Virus record (IMG/VR): IMGVR_UViG_3300037484_000435
Location: 96,001-160,000 of that record
Source of the DNA: a virus
Taxonomy: Duplodnaviria; Caudoviricetes
DNA length: 64,000 nucleotides
Reading direction: 5' to 3' (one strand)
The notes beneath the pieces were generated by a model. That model ran no database searches and had not been told where the DNA came from. It worked only from the letters and a program-made list of their open reading frames with translations. Position numbers and translations under genes: made by a program. Positions 36,203 to 60,646 of this stretch are shown piece after piece (position 1 is the first letter of the stretch; each line of letters starts with the position of its first letter).

Positions 36203-36213
36203 ACATCCTCCTT

Positions 36214-37095
36214 TTACCACCTTCCGCATTTAGGACATTTTACCATCGCCGTGTCCTCCGTAACTCCTGCTTTATACCTGAATGAAAAACTGTCCCGCTC
36301 GAATTCATACCCACATTTATCACAAACAAAACCTCCACTAGTGAGGAAGTTGGTTGCCCGAGTAATTATGTCATACATCTCCCCACAGTCTGCTCTCATT
36401 TTTTCCTGATAGGCACGAAGTGCTAACCACTGATCGATATACTTTTTTAGATTATCCCAATGATCGAACATATACATTCTTTTACCCTTATCTCTCATCT
36501 CTAAATAAGGGAGTTTAGTCCAAGGCCACTTAAGTGTTACAACGTGAATACGAGCATCTATATATTTTTCCCAATAAAGATAATTGTCCTCCACAAACAT
36601 CTCAACTTTATACTCTTTCAGTAAATCCAATTTGTCATTTCTAAATTCGTCTTCGTAAATATCACCTGTACAAAGAACCTCAAATTTAACCTTTGGCCCC
36701 AACGCCTGCTTGATAGAATTGATAGCGGCCTGTTTAAACTGGGCTCGGCGTGATGTAATAAATAATAGCGGCTTCTTGTAGCTCTCATAGAGACCACACA
36801 GAGCTTCTACAGCACCATTTACTGGAGGTAGGGCATGATTATACAGAACAGGCTCATATACCACCCTCAATTTACTAGTAGGGACTCCTACAATTTTACC
36901 TATATCGTAATGAATCCATTTGTCCAACGACCAAGGTAATTCTAAATGAGATGTAATAGCATTCCACATCTCGGTAGCAGTATCGAGAACAATCCCGTCT
37001 ATATCAAAAGCAACTGGTAAATGCTCCCCAGGCTCAAAAATCTTTTCAATGGGCACATCAGTAATCTTTGTGAGTTCAATATTAAAAGTATTCAT
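36214..37095 (-). CDS. HAD-family 5'(3')-nucleotidase-like protein with a C-terminal Zn ribbon
   Basis: FDIDGIV, ITSR, FVEDN; CDKC...CPKC. Confidence 0.75.
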   Translation of the reverse strand: MNTFNIELTKITDVPIEKIFEPGEHLPVAFDIDGIVLDTATEMWNAITSHLELPWSLDKWIHYDIGKIVGVPTSKLRVVYEPVLYNHALPPVNGAVEALCGLYESYKKPLLFITSRRAQFKQAAINSIKQALGPKVKFEVLCTGDIYEDEFRNDKLDLLKEYKVEMFVEDNYLYWEKYIDARIHVVTLKWPWTKLPYLEMRDKGKRMYMFDHWDNLKKYIDQWLALRAYQEKMRADCGEMYDIITRATNFLTSGGFVCDKCGYEFERDSFSFRYKAGVTEDTAMVKCPKCGRW

Positions 37096-38134
37096 TTAAT
37101 CCCTCTGGGGTTCCTATTAGTAGTTTGTCTCCAGTATCAATAATCACCAGATTCGACACGCCATACAAAGCAATAGTTTTACCTGGAGGTTTAAAAATAA
37201 GATTGCTGGTGGACTCAATAGAATGCACACCTGCTTGGCCTTCCGGTTGAAATAATCCAGAATCGTAGAGAAGATGCTTTATGGAAACCCAGTTATCTAA
37301 TGTAGACCAAGCAATTTTTGGGATAAGGGCACCGCGTAACTTTCTATCTGTCAAAATAGAAGGCACTACAAAAGAGAACGGAGTTACTTCTAATTTATTC
37401 CAACCCATAATTTGGGACCCTTTTACTTGTAAAGCCTCTCTCAGATAGTGATCGAACGATCGTAAAGATGCTCCGTAAGTTCCTAAATCCCACATCCAAT
37501 TGTTGGCTACCAATTCTTTGGCAGAATCTAAATCAGGCGTAATCTGATACCCTTCCATCGCAACATTTAATGTACTAATTGTCCCCAAGACAGTGTCCTC
37601 GTAAGGGATTCCCATTGTAGTAACTTGTTGCCAATCACCAAAAAAGTAATTCATTCCGGGGGACGGGCCACCTGGGTTCAAACAAACTGCCACCCATTCA
37701 TCTGGGTGCGTCCTTAACCGCGTTGCAATATTTAAAAAATGAAACATTGCTAATTCAGTTGGCCATAAAAATTGGTCAGATGGTGAAACAATTATTGGTT
37801 CGTCGGAAGGAACTTCTTTTATATCTATTAAATACCTAACAGCTTCCCAAATGGCCCATGCTGAACCTTTTTGTGCTGGTAAGGTTAATACATTTGATAC
37901 AGGAATCCCGTAGAGATTTAATGTGTTTTGTTTAATGAGAGAGTCTATAGATTTGCCCGTAGTCACTATAATAAACCGGTCTCCCTGTCCCTCTACTACC
38001 GCAGATAATCTAGCTAAAGTTTCTTCCAATAGTGATAACTCACTGTATACTGGTAAAAATGCTTTAGGTAGTTCCTCGGAGGTTACGGGCCAAAGTTTCG
38101 GTCCAATTTCATCTGCCAATATAATTACATGCAT
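37082..38134 (-). CDS. mannose-1-phosphate guanylyltransferase (ManC)-like, degenerate active site
   Basis: VIILA...LWP....PK.FL; C-terminal NLI...IALYGVSNLVIIDTGD.LLI; GGxGxR replaced by DEIGPK. Confidence 0.8.
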   Translation of the reverse strand: MHVIILADEIGPKLWPVTSEELPKAFLPVYSELSLLEETLARLSAVVEGQGDRFIIVTTGKSIDSLIKQNTLNLYGIPVSNVLTLPAQKGSAWAIWEAVRYLIDIKEVPSDEPIIVSPSDQFLWPTELAMFHFLNIATRLRTHPDEWVAVCLNPGGPSPGMNYFFGDWQQVTTMGIPYEDTVLGTISTLNVAMEGYQITPDLDSAKELVANNWMWDLGTYGASLRSFDHYLREALQVKGSQIMGWNKLEVTPFSFVVPSILTDRKLRGALIPKIAWSTLDNWVSIKHLLYDSGLFQPEGQAGVHSIESTSNLIFKPPGKTIALYGVSNLVIIDTGDKLLIGTPEGLNEYF

Positions 38135-38168
38135 CCTAATTTTATCCTTATGTTGTTATAATGATAGG

Positions 38169-38810
38169 TCATGTTTGGTGTCTATGATGACCTGAGAGTC
38201 CGTGCTCTTTAATGGCATCGAGATGTTGTTTAGTTGCAAATCCTTTATTTGAGTTCCACCCATATAGGGGAAGCTCCTCATGCAACATATCCATCAGAGC
38301 ATTCCTAGCCGTCTTAGCCACAACAGAAGCCGCAATGCAAGGTTCGAAGAACTCACTAGCACCATCGGCCCGAATTATGGGTATGCCAGAACCGTATAAG
38401 TTTGATGGCAATGTTTCCTGTGTATAACCAAACCCATCAATTATTATGGAAGTGGCTGGGTAATAAATAGAAAAACTAGAAAGGCAAACAGACAGTGCCT
38501 GTAAAATAACCATATCGTGAGTTCTTAAATAATCATCAAATACACCCCAACCTATGGTGAGAAAAGACGACCTCAGTTTTATGTCATCAGAAATCTTGCG
38601 ACATTCTTCTTCACTTAAATCCTTTGCGGGCTGTGTGTACTGAACTTTGGAGTGTGGCTCCACTATGACCGCTGACGCGCAGATGGGCCCAGCAATAGCT
38701 TTACGACCATTAATAGACACACCCACTAATGTTCTGAACCCGACCGTATCATATATCTCGGTCATAGTTAAAAGTTTTTTCTCCCTAAGTTTGTCTAGGA
38801 ACCACGCCAT
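38169..38810 (-). CDS. RNase HII-like, catalytic Asp/Glu missing
   Basis: GVSINGR..IAGP..ASAVI, IIIDG, IAASVVAK..R, YGW..NKG..T..H..AI..HG....HR. Confidence 0.85.
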   Translation of the reverse strand: MAWFLDKLREKKLLTMTEIYDTVGFRTLVGVSINGRKAIAGPICASAVIVEPHSKVQYTQPAKDLSEEECRKISDDIKLRSSFLTIGWGVFDDYLRTHDMVILQALSVCLSSFSIYYPATSIIIDGFGYTQETLPSNLYGSGIPIIRADGASEFFEPCIAASVVAKTARNALMDMLHEELPLYGWNSNKGFATKQHLDAIKEHGLSGHHRHQT

Positions 38811-38811
38811 T

Positions 38812-40038
38812 TCAATAAACCCACTCATCGCAAAGAAAGGTTTGAAAACTTTCTATAAGCTTTAACTTCTTGCAACTGGGCTCAATTTTTAATGTTTTAC
38901 CGACTATTGAACCTAATTTAAAGCGTCCCGTAATACGCCTACCTAGGATGAAATATATTTTCCCCAAAAACTTTACCTTATCGTAACGTTGGAATCCCTT
39001 AATAAATCTAGACGCTGTATTACGAATGTGGCTTCGAGCACCTTTAAATAATTTTCTATTTTGTTTGCGAACTTGTTTTACTAGGTGTTGAGTCCCACTA
39101 CGAATTTGGTTTATACCACCTACTATAGCAAAAGCATCATTTTGATGTGACTTTACTAAACCTAATTGTTCTCTAGTATTTTTAGTAATATAACCAAAGG
39201 TTTCTTCCACATCACCACACAATTCCTGCAACTTCAAAATTAGACGTTTCTTAACAATTGACATAAAAGTCTCCGCTTTAAATCCTTTGGTAACCTTAAC
39301 TTTAAGTTGAATAGAGCCCGCATGTAGCTTATCATGACAACTCTTACATAACGTGATTAGGTTATCGGGCCTATCAGAACCACCTTGACTGCGTTGTAAG
39401 ATATGATGAACATTAAGCCGCGGTTCTTTAGAACAACCTTTACAATGCTGGCAAATGTGCCCGTCTCGATGGAGCACATAAGCTCTAACATTATCAAACC
39501 CCAACTGATCACCTTTTTGATATTGGTTACCTCTAATGCTAGGGTTCTTAATACGCTGAATGTCAAAGTTAGCTGTCTCAATTACAATCTTTGTAACAGA
39601 TAAAATTGATATTACTTTTTGGATAATCCTAATATGAGAATCCAATTTATGTTGTATTGATGGGGCAAGAGGATTTCGTTTAAACTTCTCTATCCTATTA
39701 AGGAACCTGCATTTACGGTGCCTAGTCTTCCTAGAACGCCGAGTTTTTCGATACATACGACGTTCTGTTAACAATTTAGAAACGTCTTTTCTAAGCAAAA
39801 CTTCTGCTGAAAATAACTCCTGTTTCTCAGTAACCGCTGACAATCCAATATGCTCATAACCTGAGTCTACTCCTAACGTTATATGTTGCCTATAGCCTGA
39901 ACTCCCGTAAAGTAATTGTATTGTGAATGGTGTACGCTTAACAACCTTAGCCTTACCCCTCTTAAGTAAAATTCTGGCTTTAGGTGGTGTAGTAGGCATT
40001 AAAGGTTTTCCCTGTTGATTATGAACATAAACAAACAT
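38812..40038 (-). CDS. iscB: IscB RNA-guided endonuclease (OMEGA; IS200/IS605-derived)
   Basis: PLMP domain, GVDSG (RuvC-I), Arg-rich bridge helix, IET (RuvC-II), C..C..VHHI..GG....NL..LC..CH (HNH), SHQNDA (RuvC-III). Confidence 0.95.
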   Translation of the reverse strand: MFVYVHNQQGKPLMPTTPPKARILLKRGKAKVVKRTPFTIQLLYGSSGYRQHITLGVDSGYEHIGLSAVTEKQELFSAEVLLRKDVSKLLTERRMYRKTRRSRKTRHRKCRFLNRIEKFKRNPLAPSIQHKLDSHIRIIQKVISILSVTKIVIETANFDIQRIKNPSIRGNQYQKGDQLGFDNVRAYVLHRDGHICQHCKGCSKEPRLNVHHILQRSQGGSDRPDNLITLCKSCHDKLHAGSIQLKVKVTKGFKAETFMSIVKKRLILKLQELCGDVEETFGYITKNTREQLGLVKSHQNDAFAIVGGINQIRSGTQHLVKQVRKQNRKLFKGARSHIRNTASRFIKGFQRYDKVKFLGKIYFILGRRITGRFKLGSIVGKTLKIEPSCKKLKLIESFQTFLCDEWVY

Positions 40039-40039
40039 T

Positions 40040-40269
40040 ATTGTAATTACTCCTCGTTACTAATGTAACTTGGGTTAGGGCCTCATCGCTAATGTTATCA
40101 TAGTTTGTTATGTTATGTACACTACCCCTGACCCTCAGGATTGTTTAATATATAACCACAGAGCAGGGAACTTGAGGAGCATTCCAAGGTGTGATGGCCA
40201 TAATAACGTAGCCCTGTATTTCAGGACTAAAGCTAATCAATTTTTTTTTATTACGTGGTCAATTGATTA
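40040..40269 (-). ncRNA. omegaRNA scaffold upstream of iscB
   Basis: TTGATTAG, CTACGTTA, GAATGCTCCTCAAGTTCC..CTCTG, TTAAACA.TCCTGAGGG, AACATTAGCGA blocks typical of IscB omegaRNAs; TAATCAATT/AATTGATTA closing stem. Confidence 0.8.
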
Positions 40270-40898
40270 AATATTTCCTTCGCCCTGCATAAGTGTGTAT
40301 ATGACAACCAATTCTCTTTTTCTTTATTTGCTCTCATCAAATATGATGGATGATACGTAGTTACTAGACTAGCTCGCCGTCTTATCCCATCAGAACAAGC
40401 ATACTCGAAAAAAGGTAACCGTTCACCCAAAATAGACCCCAACGAATCTGATTTTTTTAATAAACCCAACGAATAAGCAGCAACCTTACCGAATACCAGA
40501 ATCAATTTAGGCTGTATGATTTCGAGTTGGCGGAATAAGAAAGGCTGACACGCATGGACCTCATCGTATGCAGGTGTTATAGCGTTTGATTTCCCCTCGT
40601 GCATAGGTCTTGATTTGATTGCGTTCGTAATGTATAGTTGCTCTCTCACAAATCCAGCACCACTAATCATCCCTTCCCAATATTTGCCCGCCTTTCCAAC
40701 ATATGGGCGTGGCACAGGTTTGGCATAAAACTCCTCTTCTCCCGCCGCCTCCGAGATTGACATCACTAAAGCATCAGCAGGACCCTCACCAAATACTCGA
40801 CAAGGGCCCTGCTGGGATATATAACATCTCTTACAAGACTCAACTTCCTTTTTTAGTCTTTCGAGACCTCTTTGTGCCTCCATCAGCTCGTTTGTCAT
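40251..40898 (-). CDS. uracil-DNA glycosylase family 4
   Basis: CKRC, FGEG, SEAAG, PYVGKAG, YITNA, TYHPSY; one Fe-S Cys position reads KSRP instead of KCRP. Confidence 0.88.
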   Translation of the reverse strand: MTNELMEAQRGLERLKKEVESCKRCYISQQGPCRVFGEGPADALVMSISEAAGEEEFYAKPVPRPYVGKAGKYWEGMISGAGFVREQLYITNAIKSRPMHEGKSNAITPAYDEVHACQPFLFRQLEIIQPKLILVFGKVAAYSLGLLKKSDSLGSILGERLPFFEYACSDGIRRRASLVTTYHPSYLMRANKEKENWLSYTHLCRAKEIFNQLTT

Positions 40899-41454
40899 CC
40901 GTTACCTCGTCATCAATAAGACCGTCTGAATCAAGCATATCTTGAACGACATCTCCTTTGGCTTGTACCACTATGGCACCATCCAGCCCGTCTACTTTAT
41001 CTTTCAGTATTGCGGCTCTTGCACACTCTCCAATTTTTGTAAATACATCCAACCCGTAACGAGCAATGATTGCAGAATGTCCTACTATATCGTGTGGTTT
41101 AAGTGCCCACTCGGGATTCCCATCGTCACCAATCTTGTCTTCGCCATCCTTGTCTTTCTTGACAACACAGCTTTCAAGGGCCGAGTCTAGCATTGCGGTT
41201 TGTTCCACTGAGGAAAGTTCATTCCAAAGTTCATACGTGATTAGAAACACATAATCTTTCTCTGTCAACGTATTCCATACGCCCGTTACTCTCTTAACTA
41301 TTGCAACCTGCCCAGATTCTATTTCGGCAGGTGACGCTTTATCCCGATACAAAAAGACCATACTCGCTGTCGCAATTTCTGTGTGGTATTTACCTATCAG
41401 TTCCTCTGCTAAATCCGTAATTTCTTTTCCTGCTGTCCAAAATTCCATTCTCAT
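40840..41454 (-). CDS. phage metallopeptidase-like protein lacking HExxH
   Basis: DYVFLI....W..L...Q.AMLD(SALES)C...KPHD....I.RYG. Confidence 0.65.
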   Translation of the reverse strand: MRMEFWTAGKEITDLAEELIGKYHTEIATASMVFLYRDKASPAEIESGQVAIVKRVTGVWNTLTEKDYVFLITYELWNELSSVEQTAMLDSALESCVVKKDKDGEDKIGDDGNPEWALKPHDIVGHSAIIARYGLDVFTKIGECARAAILKDKVDGLDGAIVVQAKGDVVQDMLDSDGLIDDEVTDDKRADGGTKRSRKTKKGS

Positions 41455-41495
41455 TCTCCTTTTGTCGTATTTTTTTATCTACGCATAAAATCATC

Positions 41496-41531
41496 TCTAT
41501 ACTATATAACTAGTACACAAATCCATCTCTA
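41496..41531 (-). promoter_or_regulatory. 36-bp motif, copy 1 (putative promoter/operator)
   Basis: 32/36 identical to 63518..63553; contains TACT-N8-AGTA. Confidence 0.65.
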
Positions 41532-41702
41532 TTTATCATCCGTATAAAATTCATCAACATCATGACACCCGCTACGTAACATACGTTGCCAATTTAAAGC
41601 TTCCAAAGCCAATTCAAAATAATCAGCTTCATCATCGTAGTCCACAGATATTCTTCTAAAAAAGTCCATAGCCTCAACAATTTTTTCTCTTGTGGTTTTC
41701 AT
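41529..41702 (-). CDS. small acidic hypothetical protein
   Basis: GAGGT RBS; MKTTREKIVEAM...DDK*. Confidence 0.55.
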   Translation of the reverse strand: MKTTREKIVEAMDFFRRISVDYDDEADYFELALEALNWQRMLRSGCHDVDEFYTDDK

Positions 41703-41707
41703 ATACC

Positions 41708-41977
41708 TCAGATATCCTCCTCGTCATAATCGGACGTAGGTTCATCTTCTTCTTCTTCTTCCACTTCCCTTATTATATCGGGAGCTCCACGGCGATTAGA
41801 CTCCCCACAAAAAGGACAAAACCACACCCCGTCCTCGCCGTCACCAAACCTACCATTAAATCCTATACCCACATCTCTGCTTTCTTGGTCTGGCTCAATG
41901 GAGTCTGGGTGCCGGATAACTGAAAATATACCGTCACAATTACCACAATAAAGTTTTGTTAATTCGGTTATTTCCAT
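41708..41977 (-). CDS. zinc-ribbon protein with an acidic tail
   Basis: YCGNC...FCPFC. Confidence 0.6.
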   Translation of the reverse strand: MEITELTKLYCGNCDGIFSVIRHPDSIEPDQESRDVGIGFNGRFGDGEDGVWFCPFCGESNRRGAPDIIREVEEEEEDEPTSDYDEEDI

Positions 41978-41993
41978 TTCCTTGGTTCCTCCT

Positions 41994-42167
41994 TTAATCC
42001 CACTCTAACGTGCAATCAATACCATCAAGGGTACCATCCAATATTTCCTCTGCCCTCTTTAGTCTTCTACTTCGTTCTGGATTAGACCCATCGTCTTCTT
42101 TTACCATGGCACGAATTTTAAAATATGCTGTAGAGACTATCTTCCTGTATTCCCCTATCGACCTCAT
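41994..42167 (-). CDS. hypothetical protein
   Basis: GGAGG RBS; MRSIGEY... Confidence 0.5.
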   Translation of the reverse strand: MRSIGEYRKIVSTAYFKIRAMVKEDDGSNPERSRRLKRAEEILDGTLDGIDCTLEWD

Positions 42168-42300
42168 TCTTTTTTCCTCCCCCTCAACAAAATTCCTAGA
42201 AAACACCCCCCTTCTTCCTTCATCTGATGGTTGTTTTCCAAAAAATCCGTTGTAATAAATTCATCTGTCTTCGCAATAAATATTAACCATTTTATTTCAC

Positions 42301-42597
42301 CTAAGGTTTGCATACTAACTCCTTTGCTTCCTCGATATACCGTTGTACAAACTCATCAAATATAGGACCTTCAACAACGCGGGCCCTCATGGTTTTAAAG
42401 TCATCCTCAAGCCACTCAGATGATGCCTCACTAACCATTGTATCGATGTAATCAATCGCCATTAAGGTGAGGGCTTTTTTATACACCCTCAAATTAACAA
42501 AATTTTTCTCTCTCATACAAATTAAAGGCTCAGAAATAGAACCTACTAACGTTGCTGGTATTTCTTCACTACACATACTAATCTCCGAATTTAGCAT
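42301..42597 (-). CDS. hypothetical protein
   Basis: 98-aa ORF. Confidence 0.5.
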   Translation of the reverse strand: MLNSEISMCSEEIPATLVGSISEPLICMREKNFVNLRVYKKALTLMAIDYIDTMVSEASSEWLEDDFKTMRARVVEGPIFDEFVQRYIEEAKELVCKP

Positions 42598-42772
42598 CTA
42601 ACCGTTTGACTTCTTGAAGAGCTATCATTGCCCTCATACCATCGCCGCCTTCAATCCATTTTCCAGCTTGGTCTTGCAAGGCCGTCCGTATCTCTGGGTA
42701 CTCTTCCGCGGAACAATTTACCAATTTACCTTGGTATACTGCATTTAATGCTTGAATAATATAATCCAACAT
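42578..42772 (-). CDS. hypothetical protein
   Basis: 64-aa ORF. Confidence 0.5.
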   Translation of the reverse strand: MLDYIIQALNAVYQGKLVNCSAEEYPEIRTALQDQAGKWIEGGDGMRAMIALQEVKRLDAKFGD

Positions 42773-43315
42773 TTAACCTCCGAACTCCTTCCCCAGCTCC
42801 CATATCAGCTTCTGTGTATCTTCAGCCAGCTTATCGTAAGTCTCGTATACCTTTCCGACTTTGGTCCCTAGGTTACTGAGGTCAGCCATAAAGTCATCCC
42901 AAGTTTTATAACGGAACTGGTGTCCTGACACATGGTTTATATCCTTAAATTTCTGTTCAGGAAAACAAGTGTAGGTTACATGCACATTGGTATCATCACC
43001 GAACGTGTTTACTCCTGAAGCACTATTCGTAAATACTATTTCTAATCGGCCCCCGTCGTTCCGCAACTCAATAACAAAACGAAAGTTGTACATGTTAAGA
43101 AAACCACCTGTACTACTAATCCTAGGCCTTCCTAGATTGACATCTGTTACCATGAACAATGCTAGGTTATCAATGCCACTGTGGTGGAGCCCTAAATAAT
43201 TGGGGTGCTCCCTTGTAATGGTTTCATTTATTTTGTCAGCTATATGTTGAGCTAGATTATCTAGCACCTCAACAACCTGCCCCAGAGATAATTTTTGTTC
43301 TTCAGTTTTGCTCAT
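42773..43315 (-). CDS. hypothetical protein
   Basis: GAGGA RBS before MSKTEEQK. Confidence 0.6.
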   Translation of the reverse strand: MSKTEEQKLSLGQVVEVLDNLAQHIADKINETITREHPNYLGLHHSGIDNLALFMVTDVNLGRPRISSTGGFLNMYNFRFVIELRNDGGRLEIVFTNSASGVNTFGDDTNVHVTYTCFPEQKFKDINHVSGHQFRYKTWDDFMADLSNLGTKVGKVYETYDKLAEDTQKLIWELGKEFGG

Positions 43316-43325
43316 TTTGTTTCCT

Positions 43326-44306
43326 CTATAACCCTGCCTTTCGCAGGTGGTAATGTAGTGTGGATTCAGGGATTCCCAAAAATCGATGAACCTGTTTCCA
43401 AGTAGATAATTCACTTTTTAGTTGTAAGAGGAATTCCCTCTCATACCTCAAACTATTCTTTTTAATTTCGTTATCCTGATATGCCTTTTTAATGTTTTCA
43501 AATTCTTTATACTTTCTATCCAAATGTAATGTAGAATTTTTCCACATAATCTCTCCTAGGGCCAACACCGAACCCCAAGAATGCAAGTGGAGAACGTGGG
43601 TTCGAGGAGACTGCTGGTAAGAATAACAAACCACATCTAAAACATTAGTGAGATAGTCTTTTAATTGCTGAATAAAAATTGGGTTACTGGCAAAATGCAA
43701 CACTGGTAATCCCGTTTTGTCCCTCCCTATATGTCCGTCACCGTCAAAATAACCTCTGATAAAATGTGGAAGCAATTCTTTTGGCAAAAAATAAGGAAAA
43801 GTAATTTTCAAGGCTTTAGGAGACAAACACCCTAGACCTTCTAGTTTTTCTATGATGTTCTTGCTAGAAATAACTAACGTAACTTGGTACGACAGAAAAC
43901 CCTTTTTTGTTACCTTAGTATCGTAGTATAACGGCCTTGGGCACGACAGGCACTCTTGGATTTCATGTAGCAACGCTTCGTCCTTTGCTCCCAAGGCAAT
44001 GCGTAACATGTACCTTTGTTTAGATTCATTTTTCGAAACATAGCCGTCAGCATAAATAAAACCTAATATATAGGCTTTTTTCTCGTGGTCTATCTCATCA
44101 AAAAAAGATTCATCAAGTGGGTACTTACGGCACTCTTTACTTCCTGCCCTCCGCGGTATTCCCAATTCCACCAAGGTATCCCACACGAATTTTTCAGACA
44201 ATTTGTGTGTCTCTGCAAGCATTTTGATTGTTGAGCCAGATATGTATTCTGTTGCTAATACTGGCTTTATGCCCTCATAAAATTTTCTAGAGTGTAATGT
44301 TCTCAT
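43326..44306 (-). CDS. free-standing LAGLIDADG homing endonuclease 2
   Basis: AYILGFIYADG and FIRGYFDGDG. Confidence 0.88.
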   Translation of the reverse strand: MRTLHSRKFYEGIKPVLATEYISGSTIKMLAETHKLSEKFVWDTLVELGIPRRAGSKECRKYPLDESFFDEIDHEKKAYILGFIYADGYVSKNESKQRYMLRIALGAKDEALLHEIQECLSCPRPLYYDTKVTKKGFLSYQVTLVISSKNIIEKLEGLGCLSPKALKITFPYFLPKELLPHFIRGYFDGDGHIGRDKTGLPVLHFASNPIFIQQLKDYLTNVLDVVCYSYQQSPRTHVLHLHSWGSVLALGEIMWKNSTLHLDRKYKEFENIKKAYQDNEIKKNSLRYEREFLLQLKSELSTWKQVHRFLGIPESTLHYHLRKAGL

Positions 44307-44311
44307 TGCGT

Positions 44312-44349
44312 CCTCCAATATACTAGGTAATGGTATAGTATATAGAAGG
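44312..44349 (-). promoter_or_regulatory. hairpin sequestering the RBS of homing endonuclease 2
   Basis: CCTTCTATATACT...AGTATATTGGAGG on the - strand; 12 of 13 positions pair, counting one G.U. Confidence 0.65.
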
Positions 44350-44357
44350 TTAGTAAA

Positions 44358-45194
44358 TCACACATCCATTTCTTCTTTCAAGTCAAAATAAAATGAGGGT
44401 GAGAGGGGCTCTACCAAATCCCAAATCATCCAAATCAATCTACGGAGTTCACTCTCAGTATCCGCCCGCAAACGCTCATCAAAAATGTGGCGGAGTGAAC
44501 GGACATTAACCCACATGGTTCTTTCGGTGGAAGAGAATACAGGGATAACCCCCCGTGCTTGTTCTTTTGTCATCGGAACATACTCAGACTTAGTTTTATC
44601 CCACTCCTCTGGAGTACACCCTGTTCCCTTTACGGAGGGCTGGGGAGAACGAAGATATTCGTAGAAATTTTGGCAACTCCTAAAATGCTTGCTCCAGCTC
44701 TGGTATCTCTCCCTAGCAAAATCCTCGTAATCAATATTATCAAGTATAGGGTATACGTAAGCAGGCCCAGCTGTTACAAAACGGCGACTACGACTGATAT
44801 GACCAGAATGCCTGTATCTACTTAACTGAGCTCCCGCTGCCTTGCTTAACCCTTTTATATTTATTGCATACTGAACTATTTCAAATGGCGTAAAATGCTT
44901 CTGACTAATAAGTTTCTTATTTAACTTTATAGCTCGCTCACTATCATTCTCTAGTTTTTCTGTAGCACCGTAGCTTACTCCAGCGGATATTGCTGGTAGT
45001 TGTTCTATTTCTTCCCATCCTATAAACCCATCTTTATCCACGGATTCACACCGATTAATATAACCAAACCCCGGCATAATTATTTTATTCACTGGCATGG
45101 TAATAGCCCGTAGCTCCACTGAAGGCTCCGAATTTCCAAAGAGACCCTTTCGAAGAGGTTTCCACTTGTCTTTTACACGCTCAAACTTTGGCAT
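44358..45194 (-). CDS. thyX: flavin-dependent thymidylate synthase
   Basis: H.TPFE, QL.RYR-x7-S.R (ThyX motif with H>Y), N.RSL.H...R...E. Confidence 0.82.
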   Translation of the reverse strand: MPKFERVKDKWKPLRKGLFGNSEPSVELRAITMPVNKIIMPGFGYINRCESVDKDGFIGWEEIEQLPAISAGVSYGATEKLENDSERAIKLNKKLISQKHFTPFEIVQYAINIKGLSKAAGAQLSRYRHSGHISRSRRFVTAGPAYVYPILDNIDYEDFARERYQSWSKHFRSCQNFYEYLRSPQPSVKGTGCTPEEWDKTKSEYVPMTKEQARGVIPVFSSTERTMWVNVRSLRHIFDERLRADTESELRRLIWMIWDLVEPLSPSFYFDLKEEMDV

Positions 45195-45408
45195 CTTTAA
45201 TCACCTCTAGTTCTGTGAAGTTTATAACAATTTTGTCGATACAGCCGTTTGCTATAAAAAAATCATAGATAAGACTTCTCAATTCTTCCCTATCTCTTTG
45301 AAATACCATAGGACCATCATCTACAGGGGTAATCTCCACTACTGATTTATCTGTCCTCTCCCATTTTAAGTATTTCCCTTTGTCGTCAACTCTCTCAAAC
45401 TTCGCCAT
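45181..45408 (-). CDS. hypothetical protein
   Basis: 75-aa ORF beginning MAKFERV. Confidence 0.55.
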   Translation of the reverse strand: MAKFERVDDKGKYLKWERTDKSVVEITPVDDGPMVFQRDREELRSLIYDFFIANGCIDKIVINFTELEVIKDAKV

Positions 45409-45559
45409 TATATTCCCCCCAACCTATAAAAACCGCACCACTGGGAAATGTCTTAATGAATACAGAGCCGGGCTTAATCTCCCCTATACCTCTTTTCTGG
45501 CTTTCTTCGCTAATTTTTATAGCCTCACTAACAGTTAAATTACATTCAAACTTTTCCAT
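45395..45559 (-). CDS. small hypothetical protein (below the ORF-track cutoff)
   Basis: MEKFECNL...YNGEV*; fills the gap and overlaps both neighbours. Confidence 0.5.
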   Translation of the reverse strand: MEKFECNLTVSEAIKISEESQKRGIGEIKPGSVFIKTFPSGAVFIGWGEYNGEV

Positions 45560-45950: not shown

Positions 45951-45954
45951 TCTT

Positions 45955-46299: not shown

Positions 46300-46449
46300 A
46301 CGCCCTCACCATACTCCACAGCTCGGAGTATCCTTTCTTTCTTAGTTCTTTGTATTTGCACGGAGGGCACATATACTCCTCTCCACTATAAATAAAATCT
46401 CCCCACAAATGCCCGCAACATACACACCTTACTTGTTCAAACCTTGCCA

Positions 46450-48841: not shown

Positions 48842-49846
48842 TTACCTCGCTTGGTTTTTTATTCTCCTGTTATTCCTACAAGTTTGATTTATCCTATATC
48901 CAATAGTTTGTCCTATATTAAAGTATTCTGCTACCTTCTTGACACTACCTAAACGTTCGTACGCCTCATTGAACTTCTCACAAGTTATGTTTTCTAAACG
49001 ATACTGCTCTTTATTATCAAAATGCATGTTAGTTAGTTCATTAGCAATTTCCTTCTTTCTATCTAACCAAATAGTAGCATTATTATAAAGGTACATGGCA
49101 ATATATTGAGAAACCAAGTTTGAACAGTAAGTCACTCTCCACCAATTCCCCATATCGTGTGCTTTACACGTGGAACCAGTTAAATTACTCATTAAATCTC
49201 GGAAAGGCACCACAACATCTTTGCAACCCGTCATTACAATGTCCCACCGCACCGCTCCTCTGGGGTAGAATTTTCGGATAGAGCCATCTCCGTCAAAATA
49301 ACCCCTCCAAAAATGATTGTTCTCTATAAACTCAGGTCTGAGGGTAACACCAAATTTTGTTTTATTGGGAACAACCCCACAGTCAGACAAATCAGCATAT
49401 ATCTGTTGGTTATAAATCTCAACAGTTGACATCTTAGATTGATATCCTGATTTAGTTGTCTCTGTAGTGTCCTTAATAAGATGGTCACTTTTTAAGGACA
49501 ACAAGAACTTCTCCAGATGTCCCCTATCAATAGTACTTATTTTAATTTTTAAAGCTCCACCCCTTTCATAAACACAACCATCCGCTATAATAAACCCCAA
49601 CCAATAAAATTGCTCTTCTCGGGTGAGGGGGAGTTGAAAGAAATTCTCATTACATCGATATTTACTATGATGAGACTTTATGGGTACCTTATTTTTCTTT
49701 AATACATTAGAAATGTGATAAGGTTGCACATTATATATTTTAGATATGGTCGTAACAGATTGATTCTCTTCAACGTACAACCTTATTATCTCATTTGTAT
49801 AAGGCACAACCCCAAGACTCCTTAGTTCCAAGTTTATATTACTCAA
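48842..49846 (-). CDS. free-standing LAGLIDADG homing endonuclease 3
   Basis: FYWLGFIIADG and FWRGYFDGDGSI. Confidence 0.88.
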   Translation of the reverse strand: MSNINLELRSLGVVPYTNEIIRLYVEENQSVTTISKIYNVQPYHISNVLKKNKVPIKSHHSKYRCNENFFQLPLTREEQFYWLGFIIADGCVYERGGALKIKISTIDRGHLEKFLLSLKSDHLIKDTTETTKSGYQSKMSTVEIYNQQIYADLSDCGVVPNKTKFGVTLRPEFIENNHFWRGYFDGDGSIRKFYPRGAVRWDIVMTGCKDVVVPFRDLMSNLTGSTCKAHDMGNWWRVTYCSNLVSQYIAMYLYNNATIWLDRKKEIANELTNMHFDNKEQYRLENITCEKFNEAYERLGSVKKVAEYFNIGQTIGYRINQTCRNNRRIKNQAR

Positions 49847-53309: not shown

Positions 53310-53311
53310 AA

Positions 53312-53722
53312 TTACCCCTCCTTATTCTCGTTGTATTTGTATAATCCACCAAGACAGTCCGACCAAGCCCTCTCTCTTAGTTGGGTCATCCCCGCTCTTC
53401 CGTGTTCTGACCGAGCGATACGATCCCAATCATGTAAACTAATTGTAATGATGTCCCCAATAGAGAGTAAACACCACCCGTCTTCGAGACCATAAATAGG
53501 TCCGTGCAACACATGCTTAATCACACATTTTATCCCGCGAACATCATAGATAAGGGGCGCACCTGCCTTCATTTCTGCTCCCGTGTATTGGGTTCGGTCC
53601 AAGATTAGTATATCCCCCTCTCGAAAATAACGGTCGTTAAACCGTAACTCGTAAGTCTTTTGCCGAGAATCTACCAAGTCCCACACATATGGGTCCGTCT
53701 TTAATATATGCGTCCTTACCAT
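53312..53722 (-). CDS. DUF3850/ASCH (PUA-like) domain protein
   Basis: H.LK.......V....KTYELR.NDR.F..GD.L.L...GL..GWC.LSI. Confidence 0.85.
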   Translation of the reverse strand: MVRTHILKTDPYVWDLVDSRQKTYELRFNDRYFREGDILILDRTQYTGAEMKAGAPLIYDVRGIKCVIKHVLHGPIYGLEDGWCLLSIGDIITISLHDWDRIARSEHGRAGMTQLRERAWSDCLGGLYKYNENKEG

Positions 53723-54273
53723 TATTTAATTACCTCTCCTTCAAATTTCTGCACCACAGTTCCTTCGTACTTGTAAGCATAGGGAGTCAAACCTGCCTTT
53801 TCACATGTACTCCGTAAAAAGGTAGTGGCGTCCCAGTTATATTCCGCTGCTACTTGTGGCAACAATAACCCGCGGTAATGCCCGCGTTCAACAATTAATC
53901 CGTGTTTACCTATAATAATTTCAGCCAAGTCGGAGACTGGTGTGGGAGGATGAAGAATAGTAACTTCATACTCTAGGTCTTCTAACTCCTCCGCTGTAAT
54001 AGGTTTAAATCTGGGGTCGTGAAAAGCGGCTTGTTCCGCCATGTGTTGAACATTATTTACTATATAATCATCAGATAATATAGTGCCTATACAACCACGT
54101 AATTGGCCGTGCTTGGTAATAGTTACAAAAACCCCTGCCTTCTTGTCTGTGTATGTCCCCGCCAAATTTAGCTGGACCATCTCTAGAGCAGTATAAGTAC
54201 GAGTTCCTTTACCTAATTTATTTTCAACCCAATTCTTTGCTAATTCAACTAAGAAGTGTTTTTTCTTTCCCAT
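53722..54273 (-). CDS. AMMECR1-domain protein (AmmeMemoRadiSam protein A-like)
   Basis: GVFVT...GQLRGCIG, AAFHDPRF.P...EL..L..EVTIL, G.HGL...RGLLLPQVA.E..W...F...C.KAGL. Confidence 0.93.
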   Translation of the reverse strand: MGKKKHFLVELAKNWVENKLGKGTRTYTALEMVQLNLAGTYTDKKAGVFVTITKHGQLRGCIGTILSDDYIVNNVQHMAEQAAFHDPRFKPITAEELEDLEYEVTILHPPTPVSDLAEIIIGKHGLIVERGHYRGLLLPQVAAEYNWDATTFLRSTCEKAGLTPYAYKYEGTVVQKFEGEVIK

Positions 54274-54463
54274 CTTTTTCCTTTTCCTGTGCCCGTTGGG
54301 TGCGTAAATAATGGGTTTTATATTTAGCTCTTTTATTTCCCCACTCTTTTAATACGCACTCCAACTCTTTTCCCAAATTGGTGCCTCGGCACCCCCCATA
54401 CCGCTGGGCGAGTTTATTTACTTTTGCTTCTATCCACTCATTTATATCAACTACATCGCCCAT
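54245..54463 (-). CDS. hypothetical protein
   Basis: 72-aa ORF. Confidence 0.5.
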   Translation of the reverse strand: MGDVVDINEWIEAKVNKLAQRYGGCRGTNLGKELECVLKEWGNKRAKYKTHYLRTQRAQEKEKDGKEKTLLS

Positions 54464-54472
54464 GATATTCTA

Positions 54473-56401: not shown

Positions 56402-56414
56402 AAATCCTCCATAA

Positions 56415-56813
56415 TTACTTCTCTGTGCTCTTTCTTTTTTTATACTCTCGCTTCTGTCTCCATTCCGCTCTATACTTGCCACCGAATACTTCCCTAAAGA
56501 TGTAATTCAATTGTTCGAGGATTTCCGTATGTTTACATGATTTACATGCTTGGTCCTCACTTAACCCGTACTTACCAAATTTTTTGGCTAAGCATGTCCC
56601 TTGCCCTACAAAGCAACCTGTTATACATCGACCAGATATCTCTCTCGGCATCCTTTGGGCCAACAAAGCAATATGATCGTCACTAATACACTCTATAACT
56701 GCGTTTGCTTCGAGTGCAGTTAGAGGGTTTTCTTCTTCCAAAATGCAAAGTACCTTTTTTGTACCTTCCATTTTTAAACGTTGTATTGATTTTTTCCTAG
56801 TTTCTTTTTCCAT
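56415..56813 (-). CDS. hypothetical Cys-containing protein
   Basis: 132-aa ORF. Confidence 0.5.
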   Translation of the reverse strand: MEKETRKKSIQRLKMEGTKKVLCILEEENPLTALEANAVIECISDDHIALLAQRMPREISGRCITGCFVGQGTCLAKKFGKYGLSEDQACKSCKHTEILEQLNYIFREVFGGKYRAEWRQKREYKKRKSTEK

Positions 56814-56817
56814 ATTT

Positions 56818-57762
56818 TTAAAGACCTTTGTCTTGTTTATACTTTAAATATTTGTTATATTTTCTTGGAAGGTAGATGGTTGCATCTTGATACATTAACT
56901 CCAAGAAAGCCTTGGCTGTCTTTCCTCCGTAAGAGATTTCTCGATATATATCTTTGGGATGAACATAAATTCTCACCCTATTGGGATAAACCGCACCAAA
57001 AAGATTCCTAATTGACTCTAAAATACTTATATTTCCAGACAAATGTGCAACCAAGTCTCCTCGTTTAGTAACATAGACACACCCATCTCCATCAAAAAGC
57101 CCCCGTATCCAATGCCAATAAAACTTTTTCGGGATATTATAAGGGAAAGTTAATGTGTGTGCTTTTTTCTGGTGAAGTCCCCATATCTGTAATTCCTCAA
57201 TTAATTTTTTATTCCAAATGTCTAGGTAGCATTGAATCTGTGTATTATTGTCCTTTCGTTTATATTTATTTATCACTGAATCTGGAGAAATAAAATCTCG
57301 CAACATACATAGAAATTCATAATCTTGTTCAGCCAAGACAATCGATAATTTATAAAGACCCTTATCAGGATTGTTTAAGAGATAACCATCTGCCGATACA
57401 AATCCTAGAAAGTATGCTTTCTCTTGTGTATCTATAATAGAAAAATTTATTACAGGAAGAGCATATTGAACTTTTCTACGAAGTCCCATCTTTAAAGCCT
57501 GAAACTCAATGGCACTATAAGACCTTTGTGGAAAAATGGTGCACAGCTCTTCCCTTGTATTAACTATAGGATAGAATTTCTGTAACTTTAGTTTATCTTC
57601 AGCAGTCCAATAATGGGAAAGCTTCTTAATCTTCCACCGTGTTGCCTTAATATTTACCGCTGCCCTTGTTCTTCCTAACCTACGTGCAACTTCTTCTGTC
57701 GGAAACTTGTCGTAGTTATCTCGTAAAAAATCTTTCTCCTCCTGAGTCCAAACTCTGACCAT
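56818..57762 (-). CDS. free-standing LAGLIDADG homing endonuclease 4 with N-terminal Myb-like repeats
   Basis: WTQEEK/WTAEDK repeats; AYFLGFVSADG and WIRGLFDGDG. Confidence 0.88.
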   Translation of the reverse strand: MVRVWTQEEKDFLRDNYDKFPTEEVARRLGRTRAAVNIKATRWKIKKLSHYWTAEDKLKLQKFYPIVNTREELCTIFPQRSYSAIEFQALKMGLRRKVQYALPVINFSIIDTQEKAYFLGFVSADGYLLNNPDKGLYKLSIVLAEQDYEFLCMLRDFISPDSVINKYKRKDNNTQIQCYLDIWNKKLIEELQIWGLHQKKAHTLTFPYNIPKKFYWHWIRGLFDGDGCVYVTKRGDLVAHLSGNISILESIRNLFGAVYPNRVRIYVHPKDIYREISYGGKTAKAFLELMYQDATIYLPRKYNKYLKYKQDKGL

Positions 57763-57818
57763 ATTTATCTCCCCACCAATTCTACTTTTTTTATCTCAAT
57801 AATATCAAATACTTAGGG

Positions 57819-59729
57819 CTAATGGACCCAATAGGGCCCAAATTTTGCATCCACTTTACACGGACACACACTCGCAGGAATCATATCATAAAATGCCCGC
57901 GTCATTCCACCAACTAAAATTTCTTTAGCTTCCTGAACTACTTCTTTCTTCACCATTGTTTGTATCTCATCATGCACAACGGCCCATACATAGGCATTAC
58001 TATTGCCAAATCTGTTGTTTAATCCCTCATAAACATATTTGAGGGCCAATTTAGTCATTGAGGCTGACGAACCTTGAATTGTATGATTCACGGCCTGTCT
58101 TCTTACACCTGCTTTTATCTTCTCATAATCAGGGTCTGAGTTCGGGGGTAAGTTATAATATCTACGCCTACCCATTAAGGTCAAACTAAAACCCTTCTCC
58201 ACCGCCTTGTTACCTTCGACATCAATATAACGCTTCAAAGCGGGGTAAAACTTGAAGAAGCCCTGAATAACTGTCTTGGCTTCATCCTCAGGTATGTTAG
58301 CTACTTGAGCCAATCTTTTATAACTTCCACCGTAGGAGGTTAAGAAGTTAGCAGACTTACAAATACCACGTAGCCTTTTCCATTTTTCTTCTTCTTCTGT
58401 TATCTCGCTAAACCTTTGTTCATCTTGTTTCCTGTCTAAGGATTTCAAGATAGACCTCAGCTTATCCTTGTCAATTCCATATACCCGACACGTGGTGTTA
58501 TTATGTATATCCTCATTATTACGGAAGGCTTCCTGCATATTAACCTCATTACTGAGGTAGGATAACACCCGCAATTCCTGCCCGCCAAAGTCAGCTCCTA
58601 GACATACATAGCCTTCTGGAGCAACAAACCCGCGTCGATATTTACCCAAAGCGGGAATGTTCTGCATATTTGGGTCTTCAGATGCAAAACGTCCTGTTGA
58701 GGTTGAGCACTGTTTAAAACTAGCGTGCATACGACCAGTAACTCTGTTGATTCTGGCCAGCATCTTCTCACCGTAAGAGGTAAAAAACTTTCTTAGTTCT
58801 CGGTATTCCAATAGAGGTTCAATTATTGGGTGTGAACCACTAATCTTTTCCAAGATGTCCGCTCCAGTTGATTCTACATTGAGGCCTAAATCTCTCAAGG
58901 CTGGCCCCAATTGTGCGGGGCTGTCTACAGAAATCCCACAGAAATTATCAAAGACCGATTTCTGTTTCTCTAGGGGTTTGAGGTAGGCGTTTATAATGAT
59001 ACGTAACTCATTAAGTCTTTCCTCAGTTTCCTGTAAAAGTTTTCGCCAATGCTCCAAATCCAAATCAACACCGTGATATTCCATCATGGCCACAGCAGGT
59101 ATAATATCAAATTCTAACTGTGATACTGGTATGAGGCCATCTTGTTGTAACTTAAATAGTTGGCCCCAGTAGATGGGCTGTAGAACATGCACATCTCTTG
59201 CAGAATACTGTAGCTGTTCTTCTGAAAAACCTGTCCGAACATACCCTGAGTAAAAACCTTTCCTCAGAGCTTTATTCATATCTTTCGTTGTAAACTTAGT
59301 GTATTTGGGGGCCACAACATCCAACTTCTGGTAACCGTTGGTAGGAAAATCTTTACCAGCACCCAAGATTTTCTCGCTAATCATAGTATCATACAGATTA
59401 ACGAGTTCAATCCCTGTCGAAGCTTTTATAATCTTGAAATCAAACCCGATGTTATGGCCTATTTTTAAACAATCCTTTTTGCTACAAATGTCCTTTAGCA
59501 ACCTATAAACTGGGGAGGTTGTATCCCTCCGTAAAATTGCGTTCTCTACCGTACAGTCAATCACCACATTACTCTGGCCATTTGAAAACTGCCAAAGCAA
59601 TAATTCTGCTGTGTGTGGGTCCAAACCTGTTGTTTCTGTATCTGTTCCAATTAAAGGGGCTCTAACAAATTCATGCAGAGCCCCGAGTATATCCTCATCC
59701 GTTTTCACGTATGTATACGGTAATTCCAT
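57819..59729 (-). CDS. polA: family A DNA polymerase (3'-5' exonuclease plus polymerase, no 5' nuclease)
   Basis: DTET, HNIGFD, YS.RD, TGR..S..PN.QNIP, ADF...ELR, R...K..NF...YG, VHDE. Confidence 0.95.
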   Translation of the reverse strand: MELPYTYVKTDEDILGALHEFVRAPLIGTDTETTGLDPHTAELLLWQFSNGQSNVVIDCTVENAILRRDTTSPVYRLLKDICSKKDCLKIGHNIGFDFKIIKASTGIELVNLYDTMISEKILGAGKDFPTNGYQKLDVVAPKYTKFTTKDMNKALRKGFYSGYVRTGFSEEQLQYSARDVHVLQPIYWGQLFKLQQDGLIPVSQLEFDIIPAVAMMEYHGVDLDLEHWRKLLQETEERLNELRIIINAYLKPLEKQKSVFDNFCGISVDSPAQLGPALRDLGLNVESTGADILEKISGSHPIIEPLLEYRELRKFFTSYGEKMLARINRVTGRMHASFKQCSTSTGRFASEDPNMQNIPALGKYRRGFVAPEGYVCLGADFGGQELRVLSYLSNEVNMQEAFRNNEDIHNNTTCRVYGIDKDKLRSILKSLDRKQDEQRFSEITEEEEKWKRLRGICKSANFLTSYGGSYKRLAQVANIPEDEAKTVIQGFFKFYPALKRYIDVEGNKAVEKGFSLTLMGRRRYYNLPPNSDPDYEKIKAGVRRQAVNHTIQGSSASMTKLALKYVYEGLNNRFGNSNAYVWAVVHDEIQTMVKKEVVQEAKEILVGGMTRAFYDMIPASVCPCKVDAKFGPYWVH

Positions 59730-60646
59730 TAAGGAGCCTCCAACAATGCTTTCCTGTGCTCAACTATATCTGGTAATTCAGACAGTATATCAGTAAGTTC
59801 CGCCTCTCCACAAGCCATTATTTTTGTGTTGTCCAACAAAAAATGTCCCTCTTTACTCTCCATTACCTTAGGTAAAACTTGTGGGCGTATAATAGGGATA
59901 AGTTTTTGTATTAACTCCGCATTTGGCATTCCAGACGCACTAGAAACATTATATACCCCGCGAAAATCTTTTATACCTAAAAGATTAGCAATCATAACAC
60001 AGGCTTGCCGAACCAAAATATAGTCCCTTTTCTGCTGGCCGTGCTTAACTAGCAATGGTTGGTCAGACAAAAGAGTCTGAATAATAAATGTGAGCGGGTC
60101 GGCCATAGGATGTAAGAAATCTCTTTTGCCCACTATGATAGACGGACGCAAAATTACTAGCGGTATCTTCAAGTTCTTACACACTGAAGTTACATATTTC
60201 TCAGCAATAAGCTTATCCGTAATGAACATATTGGGACTTTCCCAGTTGATTATAGATGTCTCCTTAATTAAACCAGTTTTAGGTTTGTAAACCATATCCG
60301 AAGAGACGTAAACAAGCCGTGCACCATCCAACACTGACATAATAGGGAGCATACGTACCATGGCATGCATTAACCACGAGTACCGCACATGCGGCGTGAC
60401 ATTCGGGTCATTAGCAAAAAAGAAAGGGAGCCAGACTACATTATCCGGCGTGAATGATTTTAAGGCAGAGGACACAGAAGATTCATTAGTAGCGTCCCCA
60501 AACATAATCTGTAGGTTAGGGCTATTCTCTAGAGGGGAAGAAAAACTGTAGTTATCATATACCGCTACAGACTCTCCCCGTAACAATAATTCTTGGGCGA
60601 GATTCCTCCCAAGGAACCCCGCCCCTCCAATAAGTAAGTGTTTCAT
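59729..60646 (-). CDS. extended-SDR NAD-dependent epimerase/dehydratase-like, catalytic Tyr missing
   Basis: GGAGFLG, VYVSS..VY, FITDK in place of YxxxK, LRP, RDYI.V. Confidence 0.85.
   Translation of the reverse strand: MKHLLIGGAGFLGRNLAQELLLRGESVAVYDNYSFSSPLENSPNLQIMFGDATNESSVSSALKSFTPDNVVWLPFFFANDPNVTPHVRYSWLMHAMVRMLPIMSVLDGARLVYVSSDMVYKPKTGLIKETSIINWESPNMFITDKLIAEKYVTSVCKNLKIPLVILRPSIIVGKRDFLHPMADPLTFIIQTLLSDQPLLVKHGQQKRDYILVRQACVMIANLLGIKDFRGVYNVSSASGMPNAELIQKLIPIIRPQVLPKVMESKEGHFLLDNTKIMACGEAELTDILSELPDIVEHRKALLEAP

Follow-up and report, generated by a model that had tools for sequence, protein, structure and literature searches.

The stretch under study is a 64-kb window (the whole stretch of DNA analysed, 64,000 nucleotides) of the virus record IMGVR_UViG_3300037484_000435, corresponding to bases 96001-160000 of a single phage contig of 545,322 bp. 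From about position 30000 to the end of the window every gene lies on the minus strand, and this arm carries genes of replication, repair and nucleotide metabolism. Those recognised encode HNH and LAGLIDADG endonucleases, a ClpB-like AAA ATPase, Rad52, a deoxynucleoside monophosphate (dNMP) kinase, a HAD phosphatase, IscB, a family-4 uracil-DNA glycosylase (UDG), ThyX, an HD protein, AMMECR1, a class II ribonucleotide reductase, PolA and a PD-(D/E)XK nuclease. The same arm holds four open reading frames (ORFs) that match the families of ribonuclease HII (RNase HII), the GDP-mannose pyrophosphorylase ManC, a putative phage metallopeptidase and the extended short-chain dehydrogenases/reductases (SDRs). 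The original prediction for this DNA held that the four are full-length and uninterrupted, and that they keep their folds while key catalytic residues have been lost; Pfam matches, motif alignments and stop-free reading frames bear this out. The four genes, and the polymerase gene that adjoins one of them, are as follows.

37082..38134, minus strand: ManC-like (GDP-mannose pyrophosphorylase-like) protein, 350 amino acids (Pfam, 23.8 bits)
38169..38828, minus strand: RNase HII-like protein, 219 amino acids (Pfam PF01351, 39.8 bits)
40840..41454, minus strand: PhageMetallopep (PF18894) homolog, hereafter metallopeptidase-like, 204 amino acids (Pfam, 65.8 bits)
57819..59729, minus strand: family A DNA polymerase PolA, with 3'-5' exonuclease and polymerase domains, intact (Pfam; motifs); downstream partner of the SDR-like gene
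59729..60646, minus strand: extended-SDR (epimerase/dehydratase-like) protein, 305 amino acids (Pfam PF01370, 83 bits)

Altered active sites in four enzyme folds

The RNase HII-like protein scores above the Pfam cut-off for PF01351 (39.8 bits against 25.8) and lies under every NCBIfam RNase HII equivalog cut-off (best, 93 bits against 167). Four carboxylates of the bacterial type 2 RNase H of T. maritima (D18, E19, D107 and D124) are absolutely conserved; its GRG motif and Tyr163 recognise the 2'-OH where RNA meets DNA, and the DSK Lys contacts the scissile phosphate (PMC3025331). The phage protein aligns end to end with this enzyme and is alike in fold and length (2etj, 3o3f-h; PMC3025331). 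Where T. maritima RNase HII and 44 distinct RNase HII proteins from IMG/VR read G[ILV]DEAGRG, and six cellular-type homologs likewise read G-x-DEAGRG, the phage protein reads GVSINGRKAIAGP (GVSINGRK), and the first two carboxylates, D18 and E19, are thereby S38 and I39. The second Gly of GRG has become Lys (GRK), the Asp and Ser of DSK are gone (PAK, with the Lys kept), and the junction-sensing Tyr is Phe (KGY to KGF, within NKGF). Retained are the third and fourth carboxylates, as D131 and D155 (D107 and D124 in T. maritima), the Arg of GRG, the two Arg residues by which GRG is braced, and the C-terminal nucleic-acid- and strand-binding motifs (KG.ATK.H and HR). A 3-residue acidic insertion follows the fourth Asp and is a further difference from the bacterial enzyme. 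Loss of the Asp-Glu pair is fixed in 10 relatives at 66-87% identity and in protein P0017 at 38%, all found in a large protein search, and the deep lineages L097 and L098, about 35-40% identical to the window's protein, read GVAIVGRN and GVATNGET; the L098 protein lacks the fourth carboxylate as well. Within the clade the replaced positions are themselves conserved (S-I-N-G-R-K). A query of the GenBank phage collection with the RNase HII-like protein returned only distant, intact RNase HII genes at <32% identity, and the literature searched contains no description of a nuclease-dead RNase HII.

The ManC-like protein aligns over residues 2-342 with T. maritima GDP-mannose pyrophosphorylase (2x5s; phmmer, E 1e-13). 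Its AlphaFold2 model, with a mean predicted local distance difference test (pLDDT) score of 78.8, has 2x65 as its top Foldseek match (E 4.5e-18, TM-score 0.65-0.67), a full-length match in fold that takes in both the nucleotidyltransferase domain and the C-terminal beta-helix region. Within the sugar-1-phosphate nucleotidyltransferase family (PF00483, TIGR01479), the equivalog model TIGR01479 gives it 50 bits against a cut-off of 373. GDP-mannose pyrophosphorylases anchor the phosphates with the absolutely conserved Arg of their signature GGXGXR(L)XPLX5PK; the F(V)EKP motif supplies a directly catalytic Lys, and two Asp residues bind Mg (PMC9424295). The phage signature reads LADEIGPKLWP where T. 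maritima has LAGGSGERFWP: two Gly and the Arg of GGxGxR are replaced (DEIGPK), two acidic residues stand in the loop, K13 takes the place of the Arg, and the PLx5PK part survives (DEIGPKLWPVx5PK) with its Lys (K24). FREKP has become YQITP, and the Lys of EKP is lost only in the window's protein and its close clade, KP being present in more distant members of the family. WSDxGxW reads WSTLDNW. The first Mg-binding Asp is invariant (D120), and at the second no conserved Asp is aligned, in a region where the alignment is uncertain. All 20 relatives, at 36-77% identity, share A-[DE]-[DEG]-[IV]-G-x-K, and the gene end overlaps the HAD gene in every lineage. Neither a match in the GenBank phage collection nor a relative in the IMG/VR scan was found for this protein.

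For the metallopeptidase-like protein the Pfam assignment is clear (PF18894, 65.8 bits against a cut-off of 23.7), although the function of PF18894 is itself putative. In an alignment of 151 PF18894 representatives the three HExxH residues are present in 124 (first His), 101 (Glu) and 110 (second His), and the consensus DHELxHC...HD.EEF stands against DSALESC...HDIVGH in the window: SALES occupies the position of HELxH, and all three residues are replaced. This loss marks the window's sub-clade, since the 8 nearest representatives (35-65% identity) all lack HExxH, and the proteins of L097 and L098 read DSALTSC and DSALCSC. The AlphaFold2 model has a pLDDT of 83 overall and above 84 over residues 1-140; the C-terminal tail (about 157-204), first acidic and then basic, is of low model confidence. 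In a wide VIA-align search the predicted fold matched the minigluzincins over 99-105 residues at Z 8.8-9.7, namely selecase (Z 9.7, root-mean-square deviation 3.0, 105 residues) and jannalysin and abylysin (Z 8.8), with weaker matches to the Ste24, BepA, SPRTN and Wss1 proteases. The model has no Foldseek match in the PDB at E <= 0.001, a PDB sequence search gave nothing meaningful, and the IMG/VR scan returned no relative of this protein. The label "transposase" of PHROG 513, which also matches it, was set aside, as the fold gives it no support.

The SDR-like protein aligns with extended SDRs (PF01370) to about residue 270 and keeps their GxxGxxG motif (GGAGFLG), an acidic residue after beta-2, a YDN motif and the catalytic Ser115. 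The YxxxK motif has become FxxxK, with Phe141 at the position of the catalytic Tyr (NMFITDK as against spYaaqK in alignments with PDB epimerases). Fourteen close relatives were found at 60-88% identity; of the 15 proteins, the window's included, 13 have Phe and 2 have Tyr in place of the catalytic Tyr, and either Lys or Arg stands where the Lys is expected. The protein of L096, a 260-kb lineage, has Glu and His at the two positions and keeps GGGGFIG. Thus the catalytic positions drift (F/Y/E and K/R/H), while GxxGxxG and YDN are invariant and the glycines G7, G8, G10 and G13 do not vary across the aligned relatives. Atypical SDRs such as NmrA bind the dinucleotide and lack the catalytic Tyr; the phage protein is like them in its missing Tyr.

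What sets the SDR-like gene apart is that it always lies directly upstream of a gene for a family A DNA polymerase and is translationally coupled to it. The two adjoin in 4 lineages. At the window's junction the SDR-like stop codon overlaps the polA start (TAATG), and a GGAGG within the last SDR codons is the polA ribosome-binding site; L095 and L096 have the same GGAGG and an abutting polA start, which makes 3 lineages with DNA at this junction. PolA itself is intact, exonuclease motifs I-III and polymerase motifs A, B and C all being read in the translation, and an IMG/VR scan with it returned one relative only. A predicted complex of PolA with the SDR-like protein scored 0.01 against a mark of 0.32, in a run made without controls, and is not used as evidence in either direction.

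Three of the four proteins have intact paralogs in the same genome. The canonical RNase HII (genome positions 179078-179749) reads GTDEAGLGP, DSK, IDG, GDQ and NKGY and is 31% identical to the RNase HII-like protein, a nucleoside triphosphate (NTP) transferase carries LAGGRGSR, and three SDRs retain YxxxK; the metallopeptidase-like gene is present in a single copy. A sugar-nucleotide cluster outside the window, 11-37 kb past its end (G000:C1:171064-193479), contains this NTP-transferase and the three intact SDR epimerase/dehydratase-like genes, and the intact RNase HII gene lies nearby.

Gene order, fixation and selection

A common gene order runs through at least six lineages: PhageMetallopep, UDG, RNase HII-like, ManC-like, HAD, dNMP kinase, a protein of 133 amino acids, Rad52 and the ClpB-like ATPase. 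The contigs with this order reach 260 kb in the DNA analysed and 658 kb by their recorded lengths. Three of the four altered genes are neighbours in it, and all four occur together in at least three lineages, namely the window, the lineage of the 658-kb contig and the 260-kb contig behind L096 and L097. They co-occur because they are inherited together in a core replication module, and the window is taken to hold part of the core replication and nucleotide-metabolism module of a phage family from sediment and freshwater with huge genomes (260-660 kb). No near-DNA match to positions 37000-45200 of the window was found in the GenBank phage collection.

The residue losses recur in 10-20 relatives, down to about 35-40% identity. 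Codon comparisons between lineages (3-5 lineages) gave proportions of nonsynonymous differences (pN) of 0.07-0.27 for the four genes, as against 0.63-0.88 for synonymous differences (pS), and these values are indistinguishable from those of the intact HAD, dNMP kinase, PolA and PD-(D/E)XK genes. Because synonymous divergence (dS) is saturated, the corresponding dN/dS ratios are upper bounds, at about 0.05-0.14 where they can be computed. One unsaturated comparison is available for the RNase HII-like gene: a minor-variant contig from the source sediment differs from it at 13 nucleotides in 12 codons, of which 11 changes are synonymous and one is the conservative V56I. Fixation of the substitutions in related phages and a dN/dS below 1, by which the original prediction proposed to check itself, were thus both found, the ratios standing as bounds.

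The catalytic positions have not all evolved in the same way. In the RNase HII-like and ManC-like proteins they carry fixed new residues, and this conservation of the replaced positions points to a new constraint. Those of the SDR-like and metallopeptidase-like proteins drift, which indicates that the phage can dispense with catalysis but not with the remainder of the protein. If a pseudoenzyme is defined, for working purposes, as an enzyme homolog that lacks key catalytic residues and evolves under purifying selection, each of the four genes encodes one. Their intact neighbours had been taken to speak against general decay, and decay is excluded by the fixed substitutions, by pN far below pS and by the intact paralogs of three of the genes.

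Interpretation and rival explanations

Sequence comparison indicates that the RNase HII-like, ManC-like, metallopeptidase-like and SDR-like proteins are anciently exapted or neofunctionalised enzyme folds and not decaying genes. The reading preferred here, to which a probability of roughly 0.6 is given, is that these four module genes are ancient derivatives of enzyme folds which lack the canonical catalytic residues, are kept by selection and perform non-canonical jobs, and that the losses were probably independent. Each protein would have such a job because purifying selection keeps genes that lack residues indispensable to the parent enzymes. Most likely the four losses arose separately and the present functions are in binding, regulation or scaffolding; the retained nucleic-acid groove, the Rossmann site, and PLx5PK together with one Asp suggest roles in binding. 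Inactivity in the canonical reactions, and each of the roles proposed below, is what we infer from these features.

For the RNase HII-like protein, the preferred reading points to a paralog of the intact RNase HII encoded by the same phage, one that has lost nuclease activity and probably binds primers, embedded ribonucleotides or hybrids and leaves them uncut, since the groove residues that hold RNA-DNA junctions are retained. The ManC-like protein, in which the catalytic Lys and the Gly-Gly-Arg phosphate loop are gone, is probably a regulator that binds a nucleotide or sugar-phosphate; its gene shares an operon with those of the HAD phosphatase and the dNMP kinase. Such a role resembles that of eukaryotic GMPPA, a paralog described as lacking catalysis, binding GDP-mannose and regulating GMPPB (PMC11228364). 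GMPPA is likewise a conserved family member with degenerate catalytic motifs; the phage protein, however, is not an ortholog, has no catalytic partner of the same subfamily adjacent to it, and its ligand binding is a prediction. The metallopeptidase-like protein may be a zincin fold that has shed its zinc ligands and serves as a scaffold or binding module.

The SDR-like protein probably still binds a dinucleotide, because its Rossmann motifs are invariant, and would lack the Tyr/Lys proton relay. Synthesis together with PolA from a coupled frame suggests a replication-linked accessory role or one in NAD(H) sensing. The accessory subunit of mitochondrial DNA polymerase gamma is a pseudoenzyme resembling aminoacyl-tRNA synthetases that serves a family A polymerase, and offers a precedent, by analogy, that such exaptation occurs. 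In both cases an enzyme fold that has lost its ancestral activity, probably so in the phage protein, would be associated with a family A polymerase; the comparison is one of analogy and not homology, and an association of the SDR-like protein with PolA is suggested by gene order and coupling. If the link is true, it would represent a new kind of polymerase accessory factor.

Several observations weigh against this interpretation, and most of them also favour a second explanation, according to which at least one of the four proteins, with the ManC-like protein as the foremost candidate, is still an enzyme that uses alternative residues or has been neofunctionalised for a different reaction; an example would be a ManC-like nucleotidyltransferase acting on another nucleotide or phosphate substrate in the operon with HAD and dNMP kinase. 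A protein that lacks the canonical residues need not be inactive. In the ManC-like family the PK Lys (K24) and the first Mg-binding Asp (D120) survive, the change of Arg to Lys (K13) is conservative, and distant members keep KP. Many family-specific residues are densely invariant (DQFxWP, PGGPSP, GDWQ, NNWMWDL and a C-terminal block), the overlap with HAD persists in every lineage, and the retained features are as compatible with an altered enzyme as with a binder. Two carboxylates (D131 and D155) remain in the RNase HII-like clade, which also conserves the acidic insertion, SEF.EP, near the fourth, which could rebuild a metal site, and the conservation of its S-I-N-G-R-K positions suggests a new function and not relaxed constraint. 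The nearest relatives of the metallopeptidase-like protein gain a His (VGH, position 126) close to the retained Asp 90 and His 121, and two SDR-like relatives carry both Tyr and Lys. Saturation of dS in all between-lineage pairs, moreover, makes the numeric dN/dS values mere bounds.

Continued catalysis is nevertheless considered a possible but distinctly less likely account than exaptation to non-canonical jobs, with the ManC-like protein as the case in which it is a serious rival. The signature-loop Arg and the Lys of EKP are absolutely conserved or catalytic in GDP-mannose pyrophosphorylases (PMC9424295), and D18 and E19 belong to the absolutely conserved carboxylate set of RNase H2 (PMC3025331). 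The RNase HII-like protein of L098 has lost its fourth carboxylate too, and the catalytic positions of the SDR-like and metallopeptidase-like proteins vary among relatives, which would not be expected of a rebuilt active site.

The original prediction went further and proposed a coordinated set of decoys directed against the host, in which ligand sponges, dominant-negative subunits for host oligomers or substrate shields are deployed together. Sponge proteins are a known principle of phage counter-defence, and the four genes occur together in at least three lineages, three of them as neighbours, with ligand- or nucleic-acid-binding motifs kept and catalytic ones lost. Genes of the Tad2-like (PF11195) type are found near the module in relatives. 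The part of the claim concerning selection for non-canonical roles stands, and the coordinated set is judged very unlikely. The intact genes of the module co-occur just as strictly, as shared descent of a core module would lead one to expect, and the search for a link among the four or to host proteins yielded shared synteny only. Bacterial RNase HII is monomeric, which makes a dominant-negative subunit an improbable role for its homolog, and identities of 22-31% to cellular or intact homologs are poor for co-assembly with host oligomers. Moreover, four of about 20 enzyme-fold ORFs on the arm is not clearly above a background of pseudoenzymes put at a rough 10%; if that figure is assumed, the probability of four or more is about 0.13.

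A more elaborate version, which appears slightly less plausible still, treats the four as a counter-defence toolkit of disarmed enzymes, a multi-part decoy strategy conserved in huge phages. In it the polymerase-coupled dead SDR would buffer NAD-derived signals or NAD depletion, the RNase HII-like protein would protect RNA-DNA hybrids, or phage DNA that contains ribonucleotides, against nucleases or sensors of the host, the dead ManC would sequester a nucleotide or sugar-nucleotide signal, and the zinc-less protease fold would trap a host factor. Gene decay in progress and alignment artefacts of fast-evolving viral proteins, to which the ManC-like protein's marginal Pfam score, 23.8 with the cut-off at 21.2, and an N-terminally short database call for the SDR-like gene (258 amino acids) might seem to point, were rejected as having a negligible chance of being correct, because the losses are fixed in relatives, purifying selection is strong (pN far below pS), the ORFs are full length in every lineage, three of the genes have intact paralogs, the motif alignments are unambiguous and the fold models confident.

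Pseudoenzymes are well catalogued in eukaryotes and hardly at all in phages. The literature searched contained no survey of phage pseudoenzymes and no description of these phage protein families, and the genes described here provide four clean, conserved pseudoenzyme-like examples within one core module of uncultivated huge phages. By analogy, each of the four has precedent in kind, in GMPPA, the NmrA-type SDRs and the polymerase gamma accessory subunit. The value of the finding lies chiefly in defined targets for biochemistry and in the correction of database function names: it can be asked whether a dead RNase HII binds primers or embedded ribonucleotides and whether an NAD-binding, redox-dead SDR serves a family A polymerase, and "ribonuclease HII", "mannose-1-phosphate guanylyltransferase" and "nucleoside-diphosphate-sugar epimerase", under which databases list these clusters, probably misstate what the proteins do.

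Neighbouring genes, insertions and genome setting

Other genes of the arm that bear on this interpretation are listed below.

35585..36229, minus strand: dNMP kinase-like protein with intact P-loop (PHROG 139); an intact control in the selection comparisons
36214..37095, minus strand: HAD-like phosphatase with intact DIDG (motif reading); overlaps the end of the ManC-like gene
38812..40038, minus strand: IscB (RRXRR and HNH; profile match), between the UDG and RNase HII-like genes
40251..40898, minus strand: family-4 UDG with mild motif changes (motif alignment)
44358..45194, minus strand: divergent ThyX (motif alignment)

Milder changes had been anticipated for UDG and ThyX and are present in both. 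Motif A of the UDG reads SEAAG instead of GEAPG, and one Cys of the iron-sulfur cluster is Ser (KSRP instead of KCRP), with the His of motif B (HPS) kept; the more distant relatives in L097 and L098 have SEAPG and keep CRP. The ThyX motif reads RYR..G....S.R in place of RHR..S....S.R, with RYR for RHR and Gly for the first Ser, and RHR is kept in the ThyX of L098. A divergent ThyX is thus found in the window and in L098, and the L081 lineage, over the 10 kb upstream of the module, has no ThyX and a weak ThyA-like gene (L081:648-1379). Thymidylate synthesis may differ among these phages, or their DNA may be modified.

Several neighbours had been described as intact, and motifs read from the sequence agree for PolA, the P-loop of the dNMP kinase, the DIDG of the HAD phosphatase, the class II ribonucleotide reductase NrdJ at its NPCAE loop, and the HD motif. 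The C-terminal 40 or so residues of the HAD protein form a zinc-ribbon tail (CxxC...CxxC) that is confined to this genome, its relatives being 213-252 amino acids long and tailless.

IscB lies outside the conserved module, because it is missing from the site between the UDG and RNase HII-like genes in all six related lineages, where the two genes abut or overlap. A hot-spring metagenome run (X2) contains the IscB stretch (flanks 38780-40387) with 6 differences over 1.6 kb and without the phage flanks, which suggests that IscB is a recently mobile element; a short piece in the same run, covering the tail of the metallopeptidase-like gene and the start of UDG, is uninformative. Between the metallopeptidase-like gene and UDG, three relatives carry a restriction-modification pair (L084:701-2282, L085:2443-4022 and L097:2218-3665), composed of an N6/N4 methyltransferase and an EcoO109I-like or BglII-like endonuclease, and the window has nothing in this interval, which is a variable insertion hotspot inside the conserved module. 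Four free-standing LAGLIDADG genes are spread along the arm (30850-31770, 43326-44318, 48842-49846 and 56818-57762), and where one of them separates PolA from NrdJ in the window, the relative L095 has none. In related phages, Tad2-like (PF11195) and WDGH-domain genes are located a few kb upstream of the conserved module and are possible counter-defence candidates.

The phage contig as a whole has 41.9% G+C and 40 tRNA genes, is classified as a virus record in IMG/VR and is estimated by CheckV to be complete. Among the 40 phage tRNAs is one with a CTA anticodon, which would read TAG, encoded outside the window (G000:C1:47126-47202); it is a hint that TAG is suppressed or recoded over part of the genome, and the ORFs studied contain no in-frame TAG. 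Bases 1-145 of the contig are repeated at its end (545178-545322; 138 of 145 positions identical, the first 126 exactly), inside a proline-rich repeat gene, which is consistent with a circular or terminally redundant assembly.

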